Shown piece by piece: positions 679 to 24,422 of a DNA stretch of 32,000 nt. Positions within the stretch are counted from its first letter, which is position 1; the number at the start of each line of letters is the position of its first letter. The translations under genes were made by a program, and so were the position numbers. The notes beneath the pieces were generated by a model. It was not told where the DNA came from and searched no databases. It saw nothing but the letters and a program-made list of their open reading frames with translations. The stretch comes from an uncultured archaeon (GTDB lineage Archaea > Iainarchaeota > Iainarchaeia > Iainarchaeales > DATDZZ01), in NCBI GenBank assembly GCA_964373795.1, contig CAYJVY010000001.1:71537-103536 (forward strand), given 5' to 3'.

Positions 679-3600
679 TTATTCTTCTATGTCTTCAATG
701 CCGTTTTCTGTTACTCTGTAAATTGCTTCTCCGTCTGGCAGGGAAGGAGAGTCAACTAGTTTTGCTACTCTTTTATCTTCTTTGGATTTTCTTAAGTAAA
801 GCCTGGTTTTGCTGTTGTGTACAATGAATCCATTAGCTATGTAGTTTTCGTGCATTGGAACACTTAAGTCATATAATGGTTTTGTGTTTTTTTCTTCTTT
901 TACTGATGTGACTTTTTCAAAATCTATTTGTCCTGCCATTATATTCTGCAAGAATGTTTTCTTTTGTTTCTGAATAGAGGTTTTTGTTTCAATTTCTTGA
1001 AGAACTTTGTTGACTTTTTCTAGTTCTTGTGCAGTTATGTATTTGTATTGCTTTGATTTCAAAGCATTTGTAGGATATTTCATTAGCTCTGATAAAAACT
1101 CTTTGAGTTCTCTTCTCTTGATTGGAATTACTTTTTTGCTTTGCGTGTAGTCAAATGTTTTACTCCAGTATTCGAGCTTTTCTTTTTTATCTGTTGCTGT
1201 TAAACTAATTAGTTCTGCATATTTTACCACGTTTTCGCTAAACAACTCTAATGAATAAAATTCTCCTTTGTTGTAATCTATTATTCTTGAAGTTATTCCA
1301 AATCTTAGTAAAAGCAACTGAATTATTTCCAATGTTCTTAAATCTTTTTGTGAAACACTTAATCTGCGTATTTTCTTATCCACGCTTCCTTCTGCATCAA
1401 AGAATCCTTTAATGAATGCCTTTACTACTTGTTTTGGGCTTTTAGATGCAAGCTCTAAACCTGTTTGTTTTAGTTCTTTCATTAGGTTTCTTATTTTTTT
1501 ATTGTTTAATTCTAGTTGATAACAGTTTTTTCCTGAAGCCTTTGACATAGCGCCTTTTCTGCCAAAGACCTTGCCAAGCAAAGCATTGTATTCTTCTAGT
1601 ACTTGTTTTCTAGAGTCTTTGAATTCAATGCTTCTTTTATTAGTGTTTGCATCTCCAATAAAGTAACCAGTCAGTTGTGCCAAATCTTCGCTGAAATCTT
1701 CTGGAACTGTTATTAGTTTGTGTTTGTTTGTCTCAATCTTTTGTACTTCTTTAAGCAATTGTTGGCTTACTCCATTCTGGACAAGCAAATCAACATTTAT
1801 TGCATGCATTGGATATTGTTGGTTTAAGAATCTTCTAAGTTGTCTTGGTGTAACTTCTAAAACCTTGCAAGCCTCTTTTCTTGAAAGTTGCATTTCTTTC
1901 AAGGAATTTTTTATTAATTCCGCGCCTTGCTTGTTAACAACAACTATTTCTTCTGGAACGGTTTTTGAAATTTTTTGAACACTTCCTTCAATGTCTAAGT
2001 ATTTTGCTTTCATTAAATAGTCTCCTTTTCTTATCTTCTTTGCAGTCAATTCTTTTACATTCAATCCATCTAGAACAAAAAACCTGTGGTCTGGAGAGGC
2101 AGTAATTTTGCTTCCTGCATTTATTGCGAAAACTTTGCTTATTTCATTATTAACTGATTTTTGTTCAATAACTGCTCTATCTATTTTCATCTCATTTAAC
2201 CAAGTTGACATTACTTCCAAGCCATTGAGTTTGCCTATTTCTTGTATGCTACCATCTTGACACTGAACTAAAGTATTTGACGCAAGACAAGCATGTCCAA
2301 CTACATTTCCACCAATTGGTTCTGTTGGATCTCCAAATAATACATCTGGTTTGCTCATTACTTGATTTGTTACCAGTACTGCTAAATTATTTAGCTCTGC
2401 AATTTTTTGCAATGTTCGCATATGCTTGTTTAGTTTTTGCTGTCTGTCTGCTAGCATCCCTCTTCCAATGAATTCAGATCTGAATTGAGCTGTAAGAGAA
2501 TCAACTATTAATAGTTTAACATTTTTTTCTTTAATCATGTCTGCTGCTTTTTCAACTAAAAGCATTTGATGATCTGCGTTATAGGCTCTTCCAACAAAAA
2601 TGTTTTTTAAAACCTTTTCAGGATCTAAACCAATGTGTTCTGCTATTGCTTGAACTCTTTCAGGACGAAAAGAATTCTCTGAATCAATATACAAACACGA
2701 ACCTTCTAAACCTCCTTGCTCTTTAGGAAGTTGAACTGTTACAGCTGTTTGAAAACACCATTGAGTGTTATGCATGAATACTGGTTTATTTCCTCCAATA
2801 AAACTGTGTGTTTCAGGAACATTTAAATCATAAACCCAATCATTGTATTCTTTTTTTTCAATTTTTGTTATTTTTTCCCATTGAATTATATTTTCTGAAA
2901 GTATTCGCAAAATATTTATGTCTTTATATAATTCCGAGTCTTTTGTAATTTGGTCAATCATTTCAGTTAATCTATTTGCTATTAATTGTGCTTTTTCTGT
3001 TGGAATATTTCTTGTTATATAATTTTGAAAAGAAGATTTTTTCATTTGAAGATTTTTTCTCACAGTATCTGTTTTAAATGGAAGAATTTTTAAGACTTGA
3101 ATTATGTTTTCTTTGTTTTGCTTTTTAAGTAGTTTTTTTGCTTCAATTAATTCATTTAATCTTAGTTGAAAGAAATTCACCATTTCTTTTAAGGTTTCAA
3201 TTGTAATTCTATTGTTGTATGGCTGTCTTGCAAAAAAGTTTCCAAATAAAGTAATGTTATATTTTTGCATTTCTTTTTTGTTCCATTTATTGAATCTTCT
3301 TCTTGAACCGCTTAGCTTTGCATAAACTCTTTTATAAATTTGGTTAATTTCTTTAATTGGCACTCCATATTTATATGACTTGTTTTTGTTTGAAGAAAGT
3401 TTTACATTTTTTGTTTTAGATTTTGCCATTAATTCATCAATTATTTTTTTGCTTTTTGAATCAGTTATTGATACTTTATAATATGTGTTGCCTTTGTATT
3501 TTCCTTTTTTTAAAATATGTTGTTTTATTGTTGAGGGAACGCCAAGTATTGAAAGCAAGTAAGTTAGTTGTTCTGCCAGAGTTTGCGATTTAGTTGTCAA

Positions 3601-4656
3601 CTCAACTATTTTTCTTAGACAGCCGTCTCCTTCAATATAACCCCTCAAGAATTCTTTTATTGATTCTTTGCTGCTATTCAAGATTTTTTCTGGAATAAAT
3701 TTATTGCCTGCTTTACATTTTCTTAATTCACTTAAAAATTCTTTTGTTGGTTTTTGAAAGATTATTAAGTTTTTAGCTTTAGTAAACCTTGGTTTGTAGT
3801 TAAATCTCTTTTCAATATAGCTTATTAACCATTTTTGAATTGTTTCATCAAAAATTGTTATACTACAAGGATTTGCACAACCTTCTGCTACAAACAACCC
3901 CAAAAAATAAGCATCTTCCTCAGTAACTTCGTTGACTGAGTGATTTAAATCAATTTTTGTAGGTGCACCAATAAAATCTCCTTCTTTTAATAAACCAGTT
4001 GACTTCCATTGAATTCCGTCTTCATTTAATGAAAGCAAAGGATGCTGTTCCGTTAACTCAATTATTCCCCCTCGTTCTGTTTCAATTTTTACAATTTCTT
4101 TAGCAAATTCTTTGTATAGTTTTGAAACTTCTTTTTTTAGTTCTTTACCATTTTTATCTATTCCTATTACTTTAATTGGTTTTTTCAAATCTGCAACAAA
4201 ACCTGAATCAAACTCTTGTTCATTTAAAGCATAATTTTTATAAATTTCTTCAATAGAAGTTAAGTGAACCATGTTTGGATTAAAGTATAAGATTTGAGTA
4301 TTTTTTGCAACACATTTACTCGACGCAAATTTTCCATAAATCTCTGTAATGCTTTGAGATTCAATTCCACCGCCAATTAATTTGTCTACTTCTTTTGAAC
4401 CAGTAGTAATTCTTCCAATTGTTTTTCTTTTCTCTGCAAGCTCTAAAGCAGTATCAAAACCCATTTCCAAAGCATCTCTTGCTGCCTTAATTGCTTTATC
4501 TGCTGTGCCTTCCCCTAAAGAAGCTGCTTCCATTAACTCCATTGGAGAAGCAGTTGCGATTGATTCAAGAGATTTATATCCAGCAGAAAAAAGTTTTTCC
4601 AATGCTTGCGGGCCAATGCCTGGCAAGTCAGCTACTTCTTGAATTTTTTTAGCCAT
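679..4656 (-). CDS. radA: RadA recombinase precursor carrying two inteins (mature extein about 317 aa)
   Basis: N-terminal HhH domain ([25 protein letters not shown]). Split Walker A: YGKFASSK | intein | TQWCFQ. Walker B is [17 protein letters not shown]-terminal core: GGNVVGHA | intein | [16 protein letters not shown] lies 8 nt upstream of the ATG. Confidence 0.9.
814..2289 (-). mobile_element. Intein 2 (492 aa, LAGLIDADG type) inserted after GGNVVGHA in RadA
   Basis: aa 790-1281. Starts with Cys (TGT at 2287-2289; [13 protein letters not shown]). Block B is [20 protein letters not shown] motifs [11 protein letters not shown] and [12 protein letters not shown]. Ends [21 protein letters not shown] (AAC at 814-816), followed by +1 Ser. 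Confidence 0.85.
2767..4314 (-). mobile_element. Intein 1 (516 aa, LAGLIDADG homing-endonuclease type) inserted in the RadA P-loop
   Basis: aa 115-630. Starts with Cys (TGT at 4312-4314; [11 protein letters not shown]). Block B is LTEQHPLL. Two LAGLIDADG motifs ([22 protein letters not shown]). Ends ...[23 protein letters not shown] (AAC at 2767-2769), followed by +1 Thr. Confidence 0.85.
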
Positions 4657-6196: not shown

Positions 6197-6253
6197 GTAA
6201 TAATTTTATTCAGAAACATTTTAATTTTAATGCAAAGAAAAACAAAAACTAGT

Positions 6254-6760
6254 TTAATCAATTTTACATGAATTGCAGGAAACGGAAATTCTTTTAGAAG
6301 CAAAATACAATCCAATCAAAATAATTGCAATACTTAAAGCAATTAATTCAAATCTTTTTTCAAGCAATAAACCAATAGTTGTTGCTCCTAAAAATGAAAG
6401 AAAAACATTAATGCATGCAGCACAAGAAGCTGAAGCAAACACTCCTCCAATAACTCCTGAAATAATTCCTGGAACTCCTGAAACAGTACTATTTATTCCT
6501 GGATTTTTTAACCTGAAAAAAATAAATCCTTGCATTACTAAAAGCAGTCCGCTAAGAACTGATAAAAAAAACATTAAAGCAAGCAAGTAAGAAGGAGTAA
6601 TAGCTATTTGAAAAAACAAATCATTTCCTGGAACAGATATTACAGGAATATATAAGTAAATGAAAAAGAAAATTAAAGAAATTAAAATCCAGGAAAAAAA
6701 ATAGTGTGGAAGTTTTACGACTTCAAAAAAAGCTGATTTAAAAAAATTTAATGCAAGCAT
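6254..6760 (-). CDS. Uncharacterised polytopic membrane protein with two CxxC motifs (candidate thiol-disulfide oxidoreductase partner)
   Basis: 168 aa with 4-5 hydrophobic spans. CAAC at aa 113-116 lies between two glycine-rich hydrophobic segments. CNSC at aa 162-165 lies in the C-terminal tail. The gene sits directly downstream, on the same strand, of a membrane-anchored DsbA-like gene. Confidence 0.5.
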   Translation of the reverse strand: MLALNFFKSAFFEVVKLPHYFFSWILISLIFFFIYLYIPVISVPGNDLFFQIAITPSYLLALMFFLSVLSGLLLVMQGFIFFRLKNPGINSTVSGVPGIISGVIGGVFASASCAACINVFLSFLGATTIGLLLEKRFELIALSIAIILIGLYFASKRISVSCNSCKID

Positions 6761-6796
6761 TTAAATCAAAACTAAAAATGAATAAAAGGCAGAAAA

Positions 6797-7690
6797 CTAT
6801 TCTGCCAAGACATCAAGTGTTTGCTTGAAAGTACTAAAATCTTGGGCTCCAACAAGCAATACAGCTATTTTGCTTTGCTCTTTGTCTTTTACAACAACAA
6901 AAAATTCATCTCTCAATCCTTTTGCCATTAACTTGCTTTTCAAAGCAAATAATTTTGAATCTTTTCCCTGAGTGTCTTTACCAATTAAGTAAAAAGAAGG
7001 TGTTCCATTTACTCCAAATTGATCTCCAACAACTGTATCTTCTTCAACATTTGAAGCAAATTTTCCTGAATCAAGGCATTCATTAAGTTTAGTTGAATCC
7101 ATTCCTGAAATCTTTGCAGCTGCTTGCTTTAAGTCATCTACGCTGAATCTAACTGTTCCAGCTCCTTTAGGGTTTTGCATTTCAAAAATTGCGTCATGCA
7201 TTTCCCAATACTTTCCTTGCTCTCCAGCACATCTAGCTGCTTCAGATCCTTTAGGAGCATCCACATGCCCTAATTGAATCAATGGAAAATCTCTGAAATA
7301 AGCTTTTGCTTTACCACTTGCAACAAATTCTTTTTCTAGTTGAGGATAAACATCATTAAAATGCCTTCTACAAAAAGGGCATTGATAATCTGAAAACTCA
7401 ACTATTTCAAGAGTTGCAGTATTACTTCCTTTCACTGCAGCATATTTTTCAGTTAAAGGCTTTAAACTTAATTCAACTGCTTGATTTGAAGGTGGTGTTT
7501 GAGGTTGAACTTGAGCGCCTCCTTGAGGAGTAGTTCCACTAGGAGTTGAAGGAGTATTTGCTTTAAGAGTAGTTAAACCAGTCAAACCAGTACTAATATT
7601 ATTTCCAACATACAAAATAGTTACTGATAAAATTAAAGTAGCTATAACAATGCTAAAAGGCAATGCATATTTTTCTAAAACATCTGACAT
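6797..7690 (-). CDS. Membrane-anchored DsbA-family thioredoxin-fold protein (CPFC)
   Basis: 297 aa. N-terminal TM anchor (ALPFSIVIATLILSVTILYVG), a P/T/Q-rich linker, then IVEFSDYQCPFCRRHF, plus GVNGTPSFYL (cis-Pro loop), as in DsbA/Thioredoxin_4 proteins. Confidence 0.75.
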   Translation of the reverse strand: MSDVLEKYALPFSIVIATLILSVTILYVGNNISTGLTGLTTLKANTPSTPSGTTPQGGAQVQPQTPPSNQAVELSLKPLTEKYAAVKGSNTATLEIVEFSDYQCPFCRRHFNDVYPQLEKEFVASGKAKAYFRDFPLIQLGHVDAPKGSEAARCAGEQGKYWEMHDAIFEMQNPKGAGTVRFSVDDLKQAAAKISGMDSTKLNECLDSGKFASNVEEDTVVGDQFGVNGTPSFYLIGKDTQGKDSKLFALKSKLMAKGLRDEFFVVVKDKEQSKIAVLLVGAQDFSTFKQTLDVLAE

Positions 7691-7965
7691 TCAAAAACCC
7701 TCTCAAAAAACGCAATATTTTACTATAAAAAGCTAAAAAAATCTCAAAAAAAACCCTTTTTTATACTTAATTAGGATCATTTAAGTATTTAAAGGTACTG
7801 GAATGCAAAGCCTGCTATGTTGTCCTGAATTAATTTCCTCTCTACGTTTTGGTTTGTTGAACTCTTTTAATAAGAAGGCCTATGCAGCAAATCAATCCTT
7901 CAAACAAAAACTTTAAATAGTATCTCAACTATTAGTTATGTTATATAAATTTTAGCAGGGATCAA

Positions 7966-9171
7966 ATGTATATAAATAGATTTTTAGAAAAGGATTTAGA
8001 GACATGTTTAAATAGGAGAGAAATTATTGGGATAATTGGACCAAGACAGAGCGGGAAAACCACTTTATTGGAACATTTTTTTGAACGTTTGGAGAATGCC
8101 TATTTTTTGAATTTTGAAGACAGAGAAACACTAGAATTATTTAATGAAGACATTAAATCTTTTGCAGAGCTCTATGTTAAGCCTTACAAGTATTTGTTTA
8201 TTGATGAATTTCAATATGCTAAAGAAGGTGGAAAAAACCTAAAATATATTTATGATACTTATAAAACTAAAATTTTTATTTCAGGATCTTCTGCAACTGG
8301 TTTGTCAATTCATGGAATAAAATATTTGGTTGGCAGAATTTTTGTTTTTAATCTTTATCCTTTTTCTTTTAATGAATTTCTTTCATATAAAGAGCCAACA
8401 TTTTACAAAAATATTTATCTAAAAAACAAATTTACAAAACCTATAATTGATAAAATTCTCCCATATTTTAATGAATTTTGCATATATGGAGGGTATCCTA
8501 ACGTTGTTTTATCGCAAAACGATAAAGAAAAGGAAATTGTTTTGCGCAATATTTACAATACCTATTTTCTTAAAGAAATAAAAGAGATTCTTAATATTCG
8601 TGAAGATTATAAATTAAGTAAACTTATTCATGCAGTTTCGTTAAATTTGGGAGGTTTAACTAATTATAATGAATTATCAAATGTGGCTGGTTTTAAGTAT
8701 AAAGAATTGATTGACAATTTAAATATCTTGGAAAAAACTTTTATATCCTTAAAAAGTCAACCTTTTTATATGAATAAAAGAACTGAATTGGTCAAAGTAC
8801 CAAAAATATTTTTCCTAGATAATGGTTTTAGAAATACTGTTATAAAAAATTTTCAACCACTGAAAAACAGGCAAGATAAAGGAGCCTTATATGAAAATTT
8901 TGTTGCTTCAGAGCTTGCAAAAAAGCAAAATGAAATAAAGTTTTGGAGAAGCAAGTCTAAAGCCGAAGTCGATTTTATTCTAGAAAAAAATGGAAAAATT
9001 GTTCCAATTGAGATTAAATCAAATCTTGCAAAACCTGTATTCAGTAAATCTTATGTAAGTTTTCTTGAAAAATATAAACCAAAAAAAGGCTTCATTTTAT
9101 CAGAAAATCTTGTAGCAGAAAAAAAGAAAATAAAATTCAGGCCAATATTTTCAATTGGACAATTAGTTTAG
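7966..9171 (+). CDS. AAA-type ATPase of the AAA_14/DUF4143 kind
   Basis: 401 aa. Walker A is GPRQSGKTT and Walker B is YLFIDEFQY. The C-terminal part resembles the DUF4143 nuclease-like tail (EVDFILEKNGKIVPIEIK). It is the only plus-strand gene between 337 and 12120. Confidence 0.65.
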   Translation: MYINRFLEKDLETCLNRREIIGIIGPRQSGKTTLLEHFFERLENAYFLNFEDRETLELFNEDIKSFAELYVKPYKYLFIDEFQYAKEGGKNLKYIYDTYKTKIFISGSSATGLSIHGIKYLVGRIFVFNLYPFSFNEFLSYKEPTFYKNIYLKNKFTKPIIDKILPYFNEFCIYGGYPNVVLSQNDKEKEIVLRNIYNTYFLKEIKEILNIREDYKLSKLIHAVSLNLGGLTNYNELSNVAGFKYKELIDNLNILEKTFISLKSQPFYMNKRTELVKVPKIFFLDNGFRNTVIKNFQPLKNRQDKGALYENFVASELAKKQNEIKFWRSKSKAEVDFILEKNGKIVPIEIKSNLAKPVFSKSYVSFLEKYKPKKGFILSENLVAEKKKIKFRPIFSIGQLV

Positions 9172-9346
9172 TTTTCCGGTGAACTCGCTCCCATTATTTT
9201 TATGCTGAAAAGAACATCAACTATTTGAAAAACGTCCCTAGGGAAAATTCATATTGATAAAGTAGGTTAAATAATTTACCGGCAAAGACAAATTTTAGAA
9301 GGATTGTTAAAAGAATTCTAAAATCAAACGCTTAGGAATAATGAAA

Positions 9347-10027
9347 TTAGTTAGTGGAATTAACTGCTGCTTCAACCTCTGATCTTAGAGTTCCATAACT
9401 TGAAATTTTTTTTCCATTAACAAAGAAAGTAGGCGTAGAAGTTACATTAAGTTTTGAAACTAAAGTTAAATCTTCTTGGATAACGTTTTGAGTAGAAAAA
9501 TTTTCAATACAAGAATTAAAGGTTCCAGAATTCAAGTTAAGTGATTGCGCATATTCCTTTAATTTTTTTTCAACTTCTTTACCTTGAAGGGAATCCCATT
9601 CCCCAACCTTTCTTTGAGACTCAAATAATTTGTCGTGATATTCCCAAAACTTTCCTTGATTTCCAGCACATTCAGAGGCAATTGCTGCAATAAAAGCATT
9701 TTCATGAATAGAGGTTAAAGGCAAATGCCTGTATTCAAAAACAATTTTATCCTTGAATTCTTGAAAAACCTGTTTAGTTATTGGATAAGCTGCTCCACAA
9801 GCAGGACATTGAAAGTCTGAAAACTCTACAACTCTTACTTTAGCATCTGGATTGCCTTTAAAATTTTTTGAAGCAGGAATTTCAATGTTTTTTGAATCAA
9901 CATTAAAAAAGAATAAAGCAATTGAAGCAATAACTAAAACAAAAAGCAATGCAATTACTATATAAATAAATTTATCAGTTGATTCTTTTTTTTCAACTCT
10001 AAATTTTTCAAAAGATTTTTTACTCAA
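9347..10027 (-). CDS. Membrane-anchored DsbA-family thioredoxin-fold protein (CPAC), paralogue of 6797-7690
   Basis: 226 aa. TM anchor FIYIVIALLFVLVIASIALFFF, then VVEFSDFQCPACGAAYP, and VTSTPTFFVNG (cis-Pro loop). Confidence 0.75.
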   Translation of the reverse strand: MSKKSFEKFRVEKKESTDKFIYIVIALLFVLVIASIALFFFNVDSKNIEIPASKNFKGNPDAKVRVVEFSDFQCPACGAAYPITKQVFQEFKDKIVFEYRHLPLTSIHENAFIAAIASECAGNQGKFWEYHDKLFESQRKVGEWDSLQGKEVEKKLKEYAQSLNLNSGTFNSCIENFSTQNVIQEDLTLVSKLNVTSTPTFFVNGKKISSYGTLRSEVEAAVNSTN

Positions 10028-12240: not shown

Positions 12241-14133
12241 ATGCTTTCAACAACTCAGGCAAGTGAATTTGATAATTTAGTTAAAACAGTAATGCAATAT
12301 AATGCTTCAATAAACATTAATGCATTCAAAAACGCGTTTAGTTTACTTGAAAAATATAATGCAGTACATTGGAAGACAAAAAAGCCTTTCGTTGAAATTG
12401 ATTTAATTCTAGCAAACATGTTAGCAGATTTAAATTTGGATAGCGCTACAATAATTGCTGCATTATTATATCATCCTTTTATTTATTCAGGGTTAACAGA
12501 AAAAGAAGTTGAGCAAGTTAACTCTGAAAGTAAAAATATTTTAAATAATTTAAAAAAATTCAAAGAATACGAAGAAAAGATTTCAAGCAAAGAAGACTTG
12601 CAAAAACTTGTTCTAGCAATGACTAAAGATCCAAGAATAATTATATTTAAAATGACTAAACAGTTAATGTATTTAAGGCTTGCAAACTTCATTGAACCAA
12701 ATCACATAAAAATTTGTGCTGATGCAGCAATGGAGATTTATGCTCCGATTGCACACAAACTTGGAATAAATAAAATTAAATCAGAATTAGAGGATTTAGC
12801 ATTCAAATACTTACAACCAGATACTTATGAGGGATTAGAAGAAAAAATTACAGCACTTGAAAGAGAAGACAATCTTAAAACAATTAAAAAAATAATGGAA
12901 GACGAATTAGCAAAAAATGAAGTTAATGCAGTTATATTTGGCCGCCCAAAACATATTTTCAGTATTTATAAAAAAATGCAGAGAAAAGAAAAACCATTTG
13001 AAGAAATATATGATTTAACTGGGTTAAGAATAATTTGTGAAACAAAAAAAGAATGCTATGAAATTCTTGGAATAATTCATTCCTTATGGAAACCCTTGCC
13101 AGGAGAATTTGATGACTACATTGCAAAACCAAAACCAAACATGTATCAAAGTTTGCATACAGCTTTAATTGGCCCGGATAAAAGAGTCTTCGAAGTACAA
13201 ATTAGAACAAAAGAAATGGATAAAGTGGCTGAATACGGTTATGCTGCTCATTGGAAATATAAAGGATATAAATCAGACAAAAAATGGGAGAAAAAACTTG
13301 CATGGGTTAAACAAATGATGGCTTGGAGACAAGACTTAAGAAAGTCATCTGAATTTATGGATTCATTAAAATCGGATTTCTTTGAAGACGAAATATTTGT
13401 TTTCACTCCAAAAAGGCAAGTAATTGAATTGCCTCAAGGATCTACTGCGTTAGACTTTGCTTACTCTATTCATACTGAAATAGGACATAAATGCAGTAAA
13501 GCAAAAGTAAACAACAAACTCGTGCAATTAGGATATGAATTGCATTCAGGAGATACGGTGGAAATACTCACTTCTGAAAATCAAGAACCAAAAAGAGACT
13601 GGATTACAATGGTTAAAACAAGCAAAGCTAAAACAAAGATCAGACAAAAACTTCAATTAAAAGCAATTCATAAAAAAGAAGAACAAATTAAAACACTGAA
13701 AAGTTTAGTAATAAAAAAATTAAATGATGAAGACATTAGGTTAGCGAAATGCTGTTTGCCTATTCCAGGAGATGAGGTTTTAGGATATTACACTACTAAA
13801 AGAAAAACAATTGTTCATAGAACTAATTGCGCTAATGCAGGAAAACAAAAAAGCAGTAACAGGTTAATAAGTGTTGCCTGGGATGTAAAAGGCAATGACA
13901 AGTTTTTAACAGAAGTAAGAGTTGAATTTCAAGATACTCCTGGAATGCTATCAGAACTACTTAAAGCATTCTCTAATTCAAATATTTCAATTAAGTCAAC
14001 TGATGCAAAAACAATTGATTCAAATAAGTCAAGAGCAATTTTTACATTTGATGCAAAAAACGTGGAAGAGGTAGCAAAACTAACAGACAAACTTGCAAAA
14101 ATAAAAGGAGTAACATTTGTTGAAAGAGCCTAA
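12241..14133 (+). CDS. Long RelA/SpoT homologue ((p)ppGpp synthetase; hydrolase motifs degenerate) with TGS, CC and ACT-like regions
   Basis: 630 aa. Synthetase motifs: GRPKHIFSIYKKM, DLTGLRII, DDYIAKPKPNMYQSLHT, EVQIRTKEMDKVAEYGYAAHWKYK. TGS: VFTPKRQVIELPQGSTALDFAYSIHTEIGHKC. Conserved-Cys region: CCLPIPGDEVLGYYT...VHRTNC. The HD-domain positions read AALLYHPF instead of AALLHD, and TKQLMYL instead of ADRLHNM. Confidence 0.85.
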   Translation: MLSTTQASEFDNLVKTVMQYNASININAFKNAFSLLEKYNAVHWKTKKPFVEIDLILANMLADLNLDSATIIAALLYHPFIYSGLTEKEVEQVNSESKNILNNLKKFKEYEEKISSKEDLQKLVLAMTKDPRIIIFKMTKQLMYLRLANFIEPNHIKICADAAMEIYAPIAHKLGINKIKSELEDLAFKYLQPDTYEGLEEKITALEREDNLKTIKKIMEDELAKNEVNAVIFGRPKHIFSIYKKMQRKEKPFEEIYDLTGLRIICETKKECYEILGIIHSLWKPLPGEFDDYIAKPKPNMYQSLHTALIGPDKRVFEVQIRTKEMDKVAEYGYAAHWKYKGYKSDKKWEKKLAWVKQMMAWRQDLRKSSEFMDSLKSDFFEDEIFVFTPKRQVIELPQGSTALDFAYSIHTEIGHKCSKAKVNNKLVQLGYELHSGDTVEILTSENQEPKRDWITMVKTSKAKTKIRQKLQLKAIHKKEEQIKTLKSLVIKKLNDEDIRLAKCCLPIPGDEVLGYYTTKRKTIVHRTNCANAGKQKSSNRLISVAWDVKGNDKFLTEVRVEFQDTPGMLSELLKAFSNSNISIKSTDAKTIDSNKSRAIFTFDAKNVEEVAKLTDKLAKIKGVTFVERA

Positions 14134-14165: not shown

Positions 14166-15305
14166 TTATTCATACCTTAATGCTTCAACTGGGTCCATTT
14201 TTGCTGCAACAAATGCAGGGTAAATTCCCGAAAGCACCCCTACTATTACAGCAAAAAAGAAAACTTGTAAAATTAAAAAAATTGTTACAGCAGTTTTCAA
14301 AGCAAAGAAAAAACTTAAAGCAAAAGAAATAAAGCTCCCAAAAAGTATTCCCAAAATTCCTCCAATTACTCCAACAAATAATGATTCAAGCAAAATCAAA
14401 AAAATAATATCTTGATTTGTCCAACCAATTGCTTTTAATGCACCAATTTCTTGAAATCTTTCAAATACACTCATTAAAACAGTATTCATTATACCAATAC
14501 CAGCAACAATTCCAGAAATTCCAGCAACAAAAAAAACAATTAAACGAAAAGAATTAATAAAATCTCCAAACAAAGAAGACAAGTCACTTAAAGTAAAAGC
14601 CTCTGCTTCGGATTCCGAAAAACGAAAATTAAACAAATCAGAAATTTTTTTAGCTTCATCCGGATTGTTTAATCCAACAACAAAGCCTGTAACTTTTTGA
14701 AAAGGAAAATTCAGTAAAGTTCTTGCATCAGATAAATCCATCCAAACACCATAATTCAAAAAACTGCTTGGAGCTTCATAAATTCCAACTATTTCAAAGC
14801 TTTCACCATTCAAATTAATTTTGTTTCCAACAAATTTATCAAAATCTTCAGCTAATTGCTTTCCAATAACTACTGCTCCTTTATCTCCAGGCTTTAAGTG
14901 TCTTCCTTTAATTATTTCAAACACAAATGCAACATTTCCGGCAGAAGAATTTTTTACAATATCATAACCTCCAATTCTGGCGTTTGGAACTAAATTTGAA
15001 GGATTTTTTCCATCAATTGATTTTAATTGGCCTTGAATAAATGGAACTGATTTTTTTACTCCAGAAATTAAATCAATTTTTTGCTCCCAATCAAGTGAAA
15101 TAGAATTAAAAATTGGGTCTGATCCTCCTCGTTGAGTTACTCTAATTCCTTGAATTGAAGAAAAAACATTTGAAACATCTAAAAAAACTCCATCCACAAC
15201 TGAAACTAAAGACATTATTGCTGCAACCCCTACAACAATTCCAAGCAAAGCCAAAAAAGTCCTCTGCTTCCTCCTAAAAATATTCGATAAAGCTAATTTA
15301 AACAA
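14166..15305 (-). CDS. ABC transporter permease, FtsX/MacB-type
   Basis: 379 aa. N-terminal TM (FRRKQRTFLALLGIVVGVAAIMS), a large extracytoplasmic domain, and three C-terminal TMs with GIGIMNTVLMSVFERFQEIGALKAIGW. Confidence 0.8.
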   Translation of the reverse strand: MFKLALSNIFRRKQRTFLALLGIVVGVAAIMSLVSVVDGVFLDVSNVFSSIQGIRVTQRGGSDPIFNSISLDWEQKIDLISGVKKSVPFIQGQLKSIDGKNPSNLVPNARIGGYDIVKNSSAGNVAFVFEIIKGRHLKPGDKGAVVIGKQLAEDFDKFVGNKINLNGESFEIVGIYEAPSSFLNYGVWMDLSDARTLLNFPFQKVTGFVVGLNNPDEAKKISDLFNFRFSESEAEAFTLSDLSSLFGDFINSFRLIVFFVAGISGIVAGIGIMNTVLMSVFERFQEIGALKAIGWTNQDIIFLILLESLFVGVIGGILGILFGSFISFALSFFFALKTAVTIFLILQVFFFAVIVGVLSGIYPAFVAAKMDPVEALRYE

Positions 15306-16022
15306 TTAAACACCTTTACTTTGTTTTTTAAAGCTTGTTTTAACAATTAATCCATCCTTTAAATGAAAACTTTTATTAACAATTGACAAAAAAGATTCGT
15401 CGTGTGAAACAATTACAAAAGTTTTTTTTTCTTCTTGATTTAATTTAAGCATTAAATCAATAATTTTTTGTCCAGTAGCAGAATCAAGATTTCCAGTTGG
15501 TTCATCAGCTAAAATAATGTCAGGATTATTAATTAAGGCTCGAGCAATTGAAACTCTTTGCCTTTGCCCTCCTGAAAGCTGCGAAGGCAAGTGAAACATT
15601 CTATCCTCTAATCCAACTTCTTTTAATAGTTTTACAGCTCGCTCCTCTAATTCATGTTTATTTGCATCAATTGTTTCAGTTGGAATTAAAACATTTTCAA
15701 ATGCATTCAAAGTTGGAATTAAGTGAAAGGCTTGAAAAACAAAACCAATTTTATGTCTTCTAAGCAAAGCCAGTTCATGATCATCTAAATGAGAAATATT
15801 GTGATTATCAATAATTATTTCTCCAGAAGAAGGATGATCTAAAGCTCCAAGCAAATGCATTAAAGTACTTTTACCAGAGCCTGAAGGACCAATAATTACT
15901 ACAAAATCTTTTCTATTAATATCTAAAGAAACTCCTCTTAGAGCAGGAACTTCTACTTCTCCAAGCATGTAAATTTTTGAAATATTTCTTGCTTCAATTA
16001 ATGCCATAAAAATCTTTTCCAA
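15306..16022 (-). CDS. ABC transporter ATP-binding protein (MacB/LolD-like)
   Basis: 238 aa. Walker A is GPSGSGKST, signature is LSGGQRQR, Walker B is [12 protein letters not shown]-loop is SHD. Confidence 0.9.
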
Positions 16023-16028
16023 AAAAAA

Positions 16029-17183
16029 TTAATCCCTTAAAGCCTCAATTGGTTGTAAATTAGAAGCAATCCAAGCAGGATAAACGCCAGAGAATACTCC
16101 AATAATTAATGCAAAAAACAAGGCTTGAAAAACAAGTAAAGGATTAACAACTGAAACCAATCCAAAACTTGTTTTCAAAAAAAATGAAACAATAAATCCA
16201 AGTAAAACTCCTAAAACTCCTCCAAAAAAAGAAACAAACAATGACTCAAATAAAATCATTCTCAAAATATCTATTTTACTCCAACCAATTGCTTTCAATA
16301 CTCCTATTTCTTTTCTTCTCTCAAATACACTCATTAAAACAGTATTCATTATACCAATACCAGCAACAAATGCACTTAAACCTGCAACAATGAATACAAG
16401 AAGACGCAGGTTTCCAAGAATTCCTGAAAACTGAGCAGAAAAATCACTTGCAGTTGAAGCATCTAATTTATCTTTAAAGGAAAAATTAATTAATTGTCTA
16501 ATCTTTACATCTTCATCTGGATTAATTGGTTCAACATAAAAAGAGGAAACCTTATCATTAGAAATATTAAAAAGCTCTCTAGCTGCATCAATATCCATTG
16601 TAATAACTGATTCAAATAAAGGGGAATCGCTTTCATAAATTCCTTTCACAACAAAGTCATTCCCATTAATGTTAAGTTTATTTCCAACAAATTTTTTTAA
16701 ATCATTAGCAATGGCTTTACCAATTACTATTCCTTTTTTATCTCCTGATTGAATTGCCTCTCCTGAAACAATTCTAATAGAATAAACAGGGTTCTTTAAC
16801 TTGAAATATTTTTGCAGTCCGATTCCATAAACACTAATTGTTCCACCAAAAGAAAAAGTATTAGGCTTGCCTTCAATTTGAAAAGGAATTCGCCAAATTT
16901 CTGGAACAACTACTCCTACTCCTGAAACTTTTTCCAGTTTTTCTTCAAAACCAGAATCAATAAATGAAAGAGTATGATCAATGGCTCCATTTTCAACAAC
17001 TAAAACAGATTTAATATTTGAAACAGCTAAATCAAATTCTGATTGCAGGCCATCCACAACTGAAACTAAAGACATTATTGCTGCAACCCCTACAACAATT
17101 CCAAGCAAAGCCAAAAAAGTCCTCTGCTTCCTCCTAAACAAATTAAAAAAAGAAACCCTCCACAAACCAAAAAACCTCCACAA
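16029..17183 (-). CDS. ABC transporter permease, FtsX/MacB-type (paralogue of 14166-15305)
   Basis: 384 aa with the same architecture. It shares the exact peptides FRRKQRTFLALLGIVVGVAAIMSLVSVVDG and GIGIMNTVLMSVFER with the other permease. Confidence 0.8.
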   Translation of the reverse strand: MWRFFGLWRVSFFNLFRRKQRTFLALLGIVVGVAAIMSLVSVVDGLQSEFDLAVSNIKSVLVVENGAIDHTLSFIDSGFEEKLEKVSGVGVVVPEIWRIPFQIEGKPNTFSFGGTISVYGIGLQKYFKLKNPVYSIRIVSGEAIQSGDKKGIVIGKAIANDLKKFVGNKLNINGNDFVVKGIYESDSPLFESVITMDIDAARELFNISNDKVSSFYVEPINPDEDVKIRQLINFSFKDKLDASTASDFSAQFSGILGNLRLLVFIVAGLSAFVAGIGIMNTVLMSVFERRKEIGVLKAIGWSKIDILRMILFESLFVSFFGGVLGVLLGFIVSFFLKTSFGLVSVVNPLLVFQALFFALIIGVFSGVYPAWIASNLQPIEALRD

Positions 17184-17186
17184 AAA

Positions 17187-18422
17187 TCAGTTACTGTTTT
17201 TTGCAAACTTGTTTCTAACAAAATATCTTAAAAGCAAACGCAAAATCAAGTAAACCAATAATAATACAACAGCTAAAACAAGTAATAAAAAAATAGGGTT
17301 TTCAGGAGGTTTTTCATAAACAAATAATTCAATACTTTTTTCTAAGAAAACCTTTTCATCTAATTCATTAAAAAACGAAATAAGTATTTTTGCATTATAG
17401 CTTCCTTGCTTCACTGAAGGCAAAATACTTAAATCAAACAAAGCAGAAGAAGAATCATTTGGATCAATATTTCCTAAAAAAGCATTTTTTGATCCACTAA
17501 ATCCTTCAGGCAAATCAAGTTTTAATTCAACCGCTTTTGCCTTGGTTTTACCAATATTATCTAATTGAATTGATAAAGAAAAATTACTTCCTTGAAGCAA
17601 TTTTTTTTCTTTTGAATTCCCTTGAACACTAAAATCCACTCCACTTAAAACAATTTCAGGTTTATCTTTTACTTCAAAAGAAATTTTTTCAACATCCCTG
17701 TTATTTGAATCCAATTGAGAAACAGTTAATTTATAGTTATAAACTCCTAAAGAAGTTTCTTTTCCTAAAAACAAACTAAAATTAATTTGCCTTGAATCAT
17801 CAATTGAAATATTTCCTAAACGCAAACTATTTTCAGTTAAAGGAATAATATTTCCAAAAGTAGTGAAACCATCCGGCTCTAAAACGACTTGAACATTTCT
17901 TGCTTCAAATGAACCAATATTCTTAACTATGCCATTAATTTTAACAGCATCCCCTATATAGGATGAAACATTGTCAACATTGATATTAGTTAAATCCAAG
18001 GAATAAAATCCTTTAACATCAACTGCAATGTTTTGATCTATTACAAAATTTTTATCATCATCCTCTCTTTTATAAACAATTTTTAATGGAATCGAATATG
18101 TTGAAGGAATAGTTTTTTTACCAACTTTAAATGATAACACCGCAGTTCTAGTTGAATTAGTTGGAAAAAAACCAATCAAATCATTTGATTTAATTGACTC
18201 GAATTCTTTTGGAAAAAAAGAAATCACAGTCAAATTATTGGCAGTAGTTCCAATGCCTCTATTTTTTAAGTCAATTTTAATTGAAACCATGTCTCCAGGG
18301 TAAATAATTGAGGGGTTTAGAGAAGTTGAATCAACCACAATTAAATTAGTTGGAAATTCACTTGTTGCACTAGCAAAAGAAAAAAATAAAACTAAAAAAA
18401 ACAAAAAAAATTGAATTTTCAA
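17187..18422 (-). CDS. Secreted, C-terminally anchored beta-rich surface protein (COG1361/CARDB-like) encoded with the ABC system
   Basis: 411 aa. Signal peptide MKIQFFLFFLVLFFSFASA. Repeated Ig-like segments (PGDMVSIKIDLKNRG; GDAVKINGIVKNIG; NFSLSIQLDNIG). C-terminal TM IFLLLVLAVVLLLVYLIL. It ends 3 nt before the permease start. Confidence 0.6.
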   Translation of the reverse strand: MKIQFFLFFLVLFFSFASATSEFPTNLIVVDSTSLNPSIIYPGDMVSIKIDLKNRGIGTTANNLTVISFFPKEFESIKSNDLIGFFPTNSTRTAVLSFKVGKKTIPSTYSIPLKIVYKREDDDKNFVIDQNIAVDVKGFYSLDLTNINVDNVSSYIGDAVKINGIVKNIGSFEARNVQVVLEPDGFTTFGNIIPLTENSLRLGNISIDDSRQINFSLFLGKETSLGVYNYKLTVSQLDSNNRDVEKISFEVKDKPEIVLSGVDFSVQGNSKEKKLLQGSNFSLSIQLDNIGKTKAKAVELKLDLPEGFSGSKNAFLGNIDPNDSSSALFDLSILPSVKQGSYNAKILISFFNELDEKVFLEKSIELFVYEKPPENPIFLLLVLAVVLLLVYLILRLLLRYFVRNKFAKNSN

Positions 18423-24220: not shown

Positions 24221-24331
24221 AACACAAATAGTTGGACAAAAAAATACAATTCTAAAACCCTTTAAAACCCATTTAAATGCGTAATAAACCAGTTTTATCA
24301 ATATTTTAATATAATACAACCCAAAAATAAT

Positions 24332-24406
24332 AGCGGGGTAGGGCAGTCTGGAGTGCCCGTCGGGCTCATAACCCGAAGGTCAAAGGTTCAAATCCTTTCC
24401 CCGCTA
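24332..24406 (+). tRNA. Initiator tRNA-Met(CAU)
   Basis: AGCGGGGTAGGGCAGTCTGGAGTGCCCGTCGGGCTCATAACCCGAAGGTCAAAGGTTCAAATCCTTTCCCCGCTA. It has an A1:U72 pair and three G:C pairs closing the anticodon stem (GGG/CCC). Both are archaeal/eukaryal initiator hallmarks. Anticodon loop is CTCATAA. Confidence 0.9.
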
Positions 24407-24422
24407 TTAAGGTGTTTGTCGA

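Follow-up and report, generated by a model that had tools for sequence, protein, structure and literature searches.

What does a small membrane protein with two pairs of cysteines do beside a DsbA-like thioredoxin in an archaeon? The question is raised by a 32-kb stretch of DNA from an uncultured archaeon of the Iainarchaeota (the whole of this stretch is called the window below), in which the gene of a 168-amino-acid (aa) protein, here called FAM, stands directly downstream of the gene of a membrane-anchored DsbA-like protein, DsbA1. The original prediction saw in FAM a possible new analogue of DsbB and VKOR, the membrane proteins that re-oxidize DsbA. The analysis described here arrives at a different answer: judging from its sequence and from those of its relatives, FAM fits best as a cysteine-relay membrane protein of the Mer type, whose architecture is new and whose partner has a thioredoxin fold. 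We put the probability at about three in four that it acts as a cysteine relay between an outer partner and the cytoplasm, and not as a quinone-linked oxidase. What the relay would carry has to be judged separately: for the family as a whole a metal ion seems the somewhat better guess, and for this particular gene a metal cargo falls a little short of an even bet.

The FAM family and its cysteines

The features for which the gene had been singled out are all present in the sequence: a membrane open reading frame (ORF) of 168 aa, four cysteines set as two CxxC motifs, and a gap of 36 nucleotides (nt) to the gene of DsbA1. These four cysteines (113, 116, 162 and 165) are the only ones in the protein, which ends 3 residues beyond the last of them. 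No Pfam model matched FAM at E <= 1, and the sole NCBIfam match was MerT (NF010314), with an E-value of 0.0065 and 16.6 bits against a cutoff of 150, FAM residues 94-166 falling on MerT residues 6-77. A word-indexed search yielded 5 relatives, a profile search 56, and HMMER, run exhaustively over 1.84 billion cluster representatives (50% clustering; E <= 1e-3), at least 264. All those seen come from candidate phyla radiation (CPR) bacteria and from DPANN archaea; among the named sources, the former include Daviesbacteria, Levyibacteriota, Roizmanbacteria, Kaiserbacteria, Saccharibacteria and others, and the latter are Iainarchaeum, Micrarchaeota, Woesearchaeota, Pacearchaeota and Nanoarchaeota. 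Absent from both Pfam and NCBIfam, the family is an undescribed one, in line with the earlier impression that the protein belonged to no obvious known family, and no description of it was found in the literature on DsbA in mer operons or on disulfide formation in CPR.

About 18 records titled "uncultured Gammaproteobacteria", a label that is unconfirmed, also hold FAM sequences, and these sequences and their operons are indistinguishable from the CPR ones. The "binchicken" metagenome-assembled genome records with this title are those of loci L013, L016, L020, L022, L023, L027, L028, L031, L038, L041-L046, L055 and L059. Since they carry CPR-type operons, and since their FAMs interleave with those of named CPR in the tree, these titles seem to be placeholders or wrong taxonomic labels.

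The original prediction hinged on the four cysteines being conserved, and they are. Across 142 sequences, with a mean identity to the query of about 30%, C113 is invariant, and C116, C162 and C165 are each kept in at least 90%, as are P39, N46 and G125. Conserved as it is at this distance, the cysteine pattern is not a matter of chance. In the set of 56 sequences, C162 is found in 51 and C165 in 46, three of those that lack a tail cysteine being truncated or frameshifted; the second tail cysteine is lost in about 12% of the members. The hallmark around the CxxC of the third transmembrane (TM) helix has the consensus F-[AG]-T-A-[ST]-C-[AST]-[AS]-C. The most conserved stretch of the protein is free of cysteine: it is the loop YIPVxxIPGNDxxFQLSI, and P39, N46 and F50 are invariant across the 56 sequences. 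Domain fusions were sought among the longer homologues, most of which probably owe their length to mis-called starts; only one of them (P0060) is truly extended, its tail carrying two further CxxC motifs in a zinc-ribbon-like pattern. Weak Zn_ribbon matches were seen in two members of the family.

The charges of the protein point to an orientation with both ends inside. Averaged over the 56 FAMs, the net charge from Lys and Arg is +2.3 at the N-terminus, +2.2 in loop 2 and +3.1 in the C-terminal tail, as compared to +0.1 in loop 1 and +0.6 in loop 3; because of this positive-inside pattern, loop 1 is placed outside and the N- and C-termini in the cytoplasm. An AlphaFold2 model built from the 142-sequence alignment (mean predicted local distance difference test, pLDDT, 89.2; predicted template-modelling score 0.83) has helices that agree with the charge-based topology, and its pLDDT exceeds 90 in the conserved stretch of loop 1. 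In this model TM3 is broken at A111-C113, midway through the bilayer, and the CAAC motif occupies the N-terminal end of the half-helix that follows; the CNSC motif comes two residues past TM4 on a basic tail. It had been supposed that the CAAC lies at the junction of two glycine-rich hydrophobic segments; the position of the motif stands, and the two segments turn out to be the single TM3, in which the model shows a break at residues 111-113. The charges and the model alike predict a cytoplasmic C-terminal CxxC, a placement with which the zinc-ribbon-like tail of P0060 would also fit, and which goes against the re-oxidase of the original prediction. Loop 3 is a mere 1-4 residues or so and holds no cysteine, nor does any extracytoplasmic loop of FAM. 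A Foldseek search of the Protein Data Bank (PDB) with a first model (pLDDT 76, TM3 poorly predicted) found nothing; the improved model found generic four-helix bundles, the best being the V-ATPase c subunit with an E-value of 0.25, and no VKOR chain was listed. With only generic bundles at E >= 0.25, the fold search leaves FAM unclassified.

The one kinship that did emerge is with the mercury transporters. When the FAM profile was compared by hhalign to MerC, the alignment (72.6%, E 3.2e-5) covered 38 columns, FAM 102-139 on MerC 12-49, and placed CAAC on CAAC (C22AAC25 of MerC). The alignment to MerT was longer, at 65-68 columns (59.6-66%, E 6-9e-5), and matched C113 to C25 and C165 to C76 of MerT. 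The same profile gave 0.9% with E. coli DsbB and 0.1% with the CcdA of locus L047, both taken as controls. The Tn21 MerC query was 100% identical to annotated merC; the MerT sequences and the DsbB control were verified, and a further search for MerT returned only sequences 76-100% identical, which barely improved the profile. Pfam MerT (PF02411) matched 3 of the 56 and 2 of the 142 members, with a best E-value of 1e-5; Pfam MerC (PF03203) did not match the FAM of the window and matched one relative only, at E 0.81. In sequence, FAM from TM3 through TM4 to the tail is like the Hg(II)-binding hairpin that MerC and MerT share, and its N-terminal half is unique. In a divergent FAM paralogue (L023:1586-2095), TM3 carries a vicinal CC (LLCCSPLIP) and the C-terminus a C-I-C (CxC); by its residues this is a MerT/MerF-style motif inside the FAM superfamily.

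Gene neighbourhoods and a proposed relay

The neighbourhoods were examined in two samples, a genome sample of 57 non-redundant loci (53 from species-representative genomes, L001, L004 and the window) and a metagenome sample of 58 further non-redundant loci that came from an independent scan with the 56-sequence alignment, 115 in total. A DsbA-like gene stands directly upstream of FAM on the same strand in 31 of the 115 (21 genome and 10 metagenome loci), mostly with a junction of -26 to +16 nt. The active site of this upstream DsbA is CPFC in every complete sequence except one with CPYC, a further one being a fragment; its second cysteine pair is conserved, and so is a G-T-P (cis-Pro) loop across the FAM-linked DsbA set. 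Extra DsbA paralogues near FAM have CPAC, CQFC or CEAC, and in the Micrarchaeota locus L017 FAM stands between two DsbA genes. The linkage to thioredoxin-fold genes, on which the original prediction also rested, proved strong and specific, and FAM is, to judge from gene order, a membrane protein dedicated to an extracytoplasmic CxxC partner of thioredoxin fold: DsbA1 here, and a TlpA-like protein encoded downstream in many relatives.

The other recurrent neighbour is MerA. True MerA (NCBIfam TIGR02053; 491.7 bits, the cutoff being 454) is encoded in 16 of the 57 genome loci and directly adjoins FAM in 8 of them. Among the metagenome loci, it is found anywhere in 19 of 58 and directly upstream of FAM in 11 of the 51 that have an upstream ORF, a position held by DsbA in 10 and by a paralogue in another 10. 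The MerA proteins of the genome loci have the active site GGTCVNVGCVPSK and a C-terminal Cys-Cys, and by these two features the "MerA" BLAST cluster was pruned. The proteins removed were thioredoxin-reductase-like, of about 300-360 aa; no other such protein is found in L025, L029 and L051, and in L015, L021 and L037 they are second copies. A membrane-anchored TlpA/ResA-like thioredoxin is encoded in 11 of the 57 genome loci, in 6 of them directly downstream of FAM and often with overlapping stop and start codons, and it directly follows FAM in 16 of the 54 metagenome loci that have a downstream ORF, which makes 22 across both samples.

In CPR and DPANN these genes come together in a recurrent operon, ArsR-MerA-FAM-TlpA, sometimes with CcdA or a paralogue added. 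Its MerA is a core enzyme without the NmerA domain, and its TlpA is a membrane-anchored, thioredoxin-like protein with WCxxC. Examples are L026:4038-7010, L034, L037, L040 and L047, and L073, L102, L114 and L125 from the metagenomes. The notion that TlpA is always followed by CcdA or by a 149-aa paralogue held in the genome loci, and was weakened by the many metagenome operons which end at TlpA. There are also minimal ArsR-MerA-FAM operons without a thioredoxin-fold partner (L034, L117 and L122). In the mer-type loci inspected, no canonical MerT, MerP or MerC was seen. By analogy, the WCxxC TlpA-like protein may stand in for MerP, and ArsR-MerA-FAM-TlpA is, on its gene content, a candidate for a complete mer system of new composition. 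MerA has been reported in CPR and DPANN lineages, in a survey without analysis of the transporters there (PMC8261052).

The DsbA-linked members have a recurrent operon of their own, in which a BlaI/CopY-like repressor and an M56 BlaR1-like protease are encoded together with DsbA (CPFC), FAM, DUF3105, Cys-rich exoproteins and a multicopper oxidase; HMA-DsbD_2 proteins, CsoR and CDF are encoded nearby. The BlaI-M56-DsbA-FAM-DUF3105 operon is found in CPR at L030:3855-9700, L031, L024, L059, L013, L016, L083 and L094. Its repressor is without the CopY-type C-terminal Cys motif and its M56 protease is short. DUF3105 has conserved PPTSGTH and HNLE-GG motifs, and its literature held nothing relevant. 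A PrsA-like foldase and secreted proteins rich in Cys are further products of some DsbA-linked operons, and glutaredoxin-like and TrxR-like genes occur in some FAM loci. In a neighbour-joining tree of the FAMs, context tracks phylogeny.

A paralogue family of 146-151 aa is homologous to FAM across all four helices (hhalign 97.5%, E 8.6e-12). Its members share an invariant CPAC in TM3; their further Cys or Cys pair stands not on the C-terminal tail, as in FAM, but in cytoplasmic loop 2. They are found at L014:1682-2137, L021:7004-7453, L008:5459-5899, L011:1322-1762 and L022:3-455. In the genome loci the paralogue comes directly after TlpA, in the slot which CcdA takes elsewhere, and this suggests a non-orthologous displacement of CcdA.

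From what could be computed, that is, the family, its Cys conservation, its topology, its remote likeness to MerC and MerT and its neighbourhoods, we infer a relay, a docking site and a cargo. An outer CxxC partner, a conserved loop, a mid-membrane CxxC, a cytoplasmic CxxC and the frequent adjacency of MerA together suggest a three-station Cys "wire" leading from the outside to the cytoplasm. The outer CxxC protein would capture a thiophilic metal, which would be Hg(II) for the mer-type operons and might be Cu(I) for those with DsbA and a multicopper oxidase. Once loaded, it would dock on the conserved PGNDxxFQ loop of FAM, a candidate docking surface for the thioredoxin-fold partner. Through ligand exchange the ion would then reach C113/C116, where TM3 is broken, move on to C162/C165 of the cytoplasmic tail, and pass from there to a cytoplasmic acceptor, which would be the C-terminal Cys-Cys of MerA where this enzyme is co-encoded.

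Several observations bear on the nature of the cargo. Because the second Cys pair would face the reducing cytoplasm, either an outward flow of electrons or an inward flow of metal is plausible. The operon ArsR-MerA-FAM-TlpA mirrors merR-merA-merT-merP in its logic, an analogy which favours metal, and the Mer-like sequence, the cytoplasmic Cys pair and the co-occurrence of FAM with CcdA also count for metal. A metal relay could more easily do without the second tail Cys than a disulfide cascade could. The two cargoes need not exclude each other, since DsbA-like proteins can themselves bind Cu(I): the DsbA-like ScsC does so very tightly, with sub-picomolar affinity (PMC8900818).

If the proposal is right, several gaps could be addressed with one family. 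FAM, with its thioredoxin-fold neighbour in the stead of MerP, would be a concrete candidate for the Hg(II) transporter of CPR/DPANN mer operons, and ArsR-MerA-FAM-TlpA would be a complete and previously unrecognized mer system. We know of no Hg(II) transporter for the CPR and DPANN lineages that carry MerA. The strictly conserved module of a CPFC DsbA and FAM, present in two domains of life, at the same time offers, through the FAMs of the DsbA-linked clade, a candidate for the membrane partner that DsbA lacks in organisms without DsbB, VKOR and MauE, whichever the direction of the transfer. FAM-type proteins are small and expressible in E. coli, and standard assays exist for a metal relay, a reductive relay and an oxidase alike.

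The locus in its archaeal setting

The features of the locus are collected in the table. In the window, the module consists of DsbA (CPFC) and FAM only, and the second DsbA paralogue, DsbA2, is 1.7 kb off. The genes of DsbA1 and FAM are probably co-transcribed, to judge from their arrangement, and the oligo-T runs past the FAM stop codon look like an archaeal terminator. That both DsbA-like proteins are membrane-anchored paralogues, one with CPFC and one with CPAC, was confirmed by Pfam, by their motifs and by their N-termini, in which a basic stretch is followed by a hydrophobic helix anchor. Thioredoxin_4 (PF13462; cutoff 23.2 bits) matched DsbA1 at 3.7e-25 (89.5 bits) and DsbA2 at 7e-26 (91.8 bits), and DSBA (PF01323) matched DsbA1 at 1.9e-11, the value being about 2e-11 for both. 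DsbA1 has a second conserved Cys pair, C154 and C205. Among solved structures it comes closest to Gram-positive oxidases, BdbD at 6e-17 and, at 1e-14, the DsbA chains 4pwp/4pwo, which are of the actinobacterial MdbA type. Between the two DsbA paralogues, on the opposite strand, stands an AAA_14/DUF4143 ATPase gene, 7966-9171 (+). A homologue of it is also found at 2413-3096 of the Micrarchaeota locus L012, a few genes away from the DsbA-FAM pair there.

Table 1. Features of the FAM locus, in window coordinates; motif positions were confirmed by translation.
Feature	Position	Strand	Description
FAM ORF	6254-6760	(-)	168 aa; four-TM membrane protein
FAM helices in the AlphaFold2 model			residues 2-16 amphipathic; 18-42 TM1; 48-54 loop helix; 57-83 TM2; 96-110 and 114-124/126-134 broken TM3; 136-160 TM4
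C113-A-A-C116 of FAM	6413-6424	(-)	membrane-embedded CxxC at the TM3 break
C162-N-S-C165 of FAM	6266-6277	(-)	CxxC on the basic C-terminal tail just past TM4
Y-I-P-V-x-x-[IV]-P-G-N-D-x-x-F-Q-[LI]-x-I of FAM	6599-6652	(-)	conserved stretch in extracytoplasmic loop 1; short helix; Cys-free
Spacer between DsbA1 and FAM	6761-6796	(-)	36 nt; T-rich
Region 3' of FAM	6197-6253	(-)	intergenic; oligo-T runs TTTTTGTTTTTCTTT immediately past the stop codon; RPA gene follows
DsbA1	6797-7690	(-)	DsbA-like protein, 297 aa; N-terminal TM helix, Pro/Thr/Gln-rich linker, Thioredoxin_4 domain
C104-P-F-C107 of DsbA1	7370-7381	(-)	CPFC active site
DsbA2	9347-10027	(-)	DsbA-like protein, 226 aa; C74-P-A-C77 at 9797-9808; paralogue not adjoining FAM

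The rest of the window holds archaeal housekeeping genes, which include RPA, TIM, CorA, aminoacyl-tRNA synthetases, aTrm56, TFE-alpha and a polyprenyl synthase. A few other genes are worth recording. The RadA/Rad51 recombinase gene, 679-4656 (-), encodes 1325 aa and holds two inteins, with two Intein_splicing and two LAGLIDADG stretches found by Pfam. A long RelA/SpoT homologue of 630 aa, 12241-14133 (+), has HD, RelA_SpoT synthetase, TGS and ACT domains, in a neighbourhood that is archaeal and DPANN-like; long proteins of this kind are unusual in archaea, and the gene may thus be a horizontal acquisition. At 14166-18422 (-), two MacB-type permease genes (MacB_PCD and FtsX) flank an ABC ATPase gene and are followed by the gene of a CARDB/DUF11 surface protein; the cluster is a probable export system, unrelated to FAM. 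The segment 24331-30422, which begins with a tRNA-Met (24331-24407) and holds a tyrosine recombinase/integrase gene (26304-27146) and ORFs without a Pfam match (27238-30422), the GC fraction being 0.23-0.24 at 28-30 kb, may be an integrated mobile element.

Alternatives and comparison with known systems

The setting of this particular gene weighs against a metal cargo. There is no mer gene or MerA, no copper gene and no metal regulator in the 32-kb window, and the import of a toxic metal makes little sense without a detoxifying enzyme nearby. The window is not alone in this, as DsbA-FAM pairs stand among housekeeping genes in L009, L012, L036 and L042 as well, and in the neighbour-joining tree the FAM of the window groups with the DsbA-linked DPANN/CPR members and not with the MerA-linked ones. 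Its partner DsbA1 is, by sequence, most similar to known oxidases, BdbD and those of the actinobacterial MdbA type. In other loci, the DsbA-linked operons with Cys-rich secreted proteins and a PrsA-like foldase fit protein folding and not metal transport, and the paralogue in the place of CcdA after TlpA hints that the fold could carry reducing equivalents. The likeness to the Mer proteins is itself remote, since it lies below every curated threshold and concerns a short, compositionally biased TM segment.

The other cargo considered is electrons. We hold as a tentative possibility, some way below an even chance, that the FAM family represents a third sort of transmembrane conduit for thiol-disulfide exchange, with no relation to either DsbB/VKOR/MauE or DsbD/CcdA, evolved from the Mer hairpin or ancestral to it, which would supply or remove redox equivalents for CPFC DsbA-like and TlpA-like proteins in the quinone-free CPR and DPANN. 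If this were so, part of the gap of organisms having DsbA and no known membrane partner would be filled, and one and the same scaffold would be able to pass on two electrons or a soft metal ion.

That FAM is a reductive transmembrane thiol-disulfide relay and a functional analogue of DsbD, CcdA or ScsB we consider clearly less likely than not; this reading comes second, after the metal relay, in our ranking for this gene. The electrons would pass from a cytoplasmic thioredoxin or glutaredoxin-like protein to C162/C165, then to C113/C116, and from there to the outer CPFC DsbA-like or TlpA-like protein, which would be a reductase, an isomerase or a metal-scavenging dithiol like ScsC or DsbC; the CPAC protein DsbA2 could then be the oxidase. 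Such a role would account for the tight and specific pairing with thioredoxin-fold exoproteins, after DsbA in 31 of the 115 loci and before a TlpA-like protein in 22, and for the stand-alone DsbA-FAM pairs in housekeeping contexts, that of the window included. It would also suit the paralogue of 149 aa that takes the slot of CcdA after TlpA, the glutaredoxin-like and TrxR-like genes of some loci, and the cytoplasmic position of the second Cys pair, which favours an outward flow of electrons. The copper-type operons, moreover, recall the copper-induced Scs system, where ScsB keeps the DsbA-like ScsC reduced (PMC10907172, PMC3322552). However, FAM has no sequence or profile similarity to DsbD/CcdA, proteins which need no cytoplasmic Cys pair in any case; CcdA or the paralogue is often co-encoded and would make FAM redundant as a conduit of reductant; the minimal ArsR-MerA-FAM operons offer no thioredoxin-fold partner to reduce; about 12% of the members do without the second tail Cys; and the partner DsbA is oxidase-like.

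Further down the scale, FAM could have some other role, as a sensor, an anchor or an assembly factor for exoproteins, with cysteines that are structural or hold a fixed cofactor, such as dimer tails with Zn or Fe-S. The zinc-ribbon-like tail of P0060 and the two weak Zn_ribbon matches would agree with this; an invariant CxxC at a mid-bilayer helix break, on the other hand, is typical of a substrate or relay site and not of a structural one, and the consistent association with MerA and CxxC exoproteins points to thiol chemistry, so we regard such a role as improbable.

Least probable of all, in our estimate, is the role first proposed, that of a new oxidase of the DsbB/VKOR/MauE type re-oxidizing the adjacent DsbA in quinone-free organisms, with an electron acceptor left unspecified. 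There would be a place for it, as about 20% of bacterial species are without DsbB, VKOR and MauE (10.64898/2026.03.05.709764). The DsbA-FAM pair is conserved across bacteria and archaea with its CPFC fixed, DsbA1 is closest to the BdbD/MdbA-type oxidases and carries a structural disulfide pair of its own, and among the products of the operons there are often secreted proteins rich in Cys (CysRich, c24 and DUF3105), whose folding would call for oxidation. The oxidase is nonetheless disfavoured, because the second Cys pair of FAM is predicted to be cytoplasmic and the first lies mid-membrane rather than at the outer face, because Pfam, PDB profile (DsbB, VKOR), hhalign (DsbB) and Foldseek gave no match to DsbB, VKOR or MauE and the sole sequence kinship is with MerC and MerT, because about a third of the family is found with MerA in mer operons, many of them without any DsbA, and because electrons would have to run uphill from a high-potential DsbA into low-potential cytoplasmic thiols.

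It remains to set FAM, as a putative Mer-type cysteine relay, beside the systems it has been measured against. With DsbB, VKOR and MauE it shares a small size, four membrane helices, a gene beside that of a DsbA-like protein, and a CxxC or CxC motif. The redox cysteines of these oxidases face outward and make use of a quinone: VKOR has a loop Cys pair and a CxxC at the outer end of TM4, and DsbB has two Cys pairs in periplasmic loops. In MauE, a CxC lies in the periplasmic loop between TM3 and TM4 (10.64898/2026.03.05.709764). FAM, in contrast, has one Cys pair mid-membrane and the other on the predicted cytoplasmic side, and there is no similarity by hidden Markov model, profile or fold. The Pfam scans of the 56 and the 142 members found no DsbB (PF02600), VKOR (PF07884), MauE (PF07291) or DsbD/CcdA (PF02683, PF13386), and the FAM profile run against the PDB sequences found no DsbB, VKOR, CcdA or MerF chain; a match to isopropylmalate isomerase in that search (E 0.55) was judged spurious. 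The earlier remark that the protein did not obviously resemble DsbB or VKOR is hence borne out by model, profile and fold, and the same comparisons set DsbD and MauE aside.

DsbD, CcdA and ScsB have in common with FAM that membrane-embedded cysteines link the cytoplasm with extracytoplasmic thioredoxin-fold CxxC proteins. DsbD/CcdA have at least six TM helices with a single Cys in TM1 and another in TM4, and need no cytoplasmic Cys pair, whereas FAM has four helices, both of its membrane cysteines in one of them, and no profile similarity to these proteins. In the chain from thioredoxin through DsbD, CcdA or ScsB to DsbC, ScsC or ResA, it is two electrons that are moved; the ScsB-ScsC pair is a copper-induced system and has, like FAM, a DsbA-like partner (PMC3322552, PMC10907172).

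The closest comparison is with the Mer proteins. MerC, like FAM, is an inner-membrane protein of four TM helices, with a CAAC in a Gly/Ala/Ser-rich helix that is followed by an [S]F-G...G-L motif, and it is associated with merA, as is part of the FAM family; its second Cys pair is on the cytoplasmic side. The Cys helix of MerC is TM1 and that of FAM is TM3, and the partner is MerP in the one case and a thioredoxin-fold protein in the other. FAM further differs by its own conserved N-terminal half (TM1, the PGNDxxFQ loop and TM2) and by being found in CPR and DPANN only. MerT differs from FAM in that its cysteines are a vicinal CC where FAM has a CxxC, and in having a third TM helix after the cytoplasmic Cys loop, which FAM lacks; FAM, for its part, has two extra N-terminal helices. 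In the relay from MerP through MerT to MerA, Hg(II) is passed on by ligand exchange, from C24/C25 in the membrane to C76/C82 in the cytoplasm and on to C558/C559 of MerA (PMC5715351). The arrangement of FAM would follow the same plan: a hairpin with a Cys pair in its first helix and a cytoplasmic Cys pair right past the second, a cargo proposed to be received from an outer CxxC protein, and, in part of the family, a place beside MerA.

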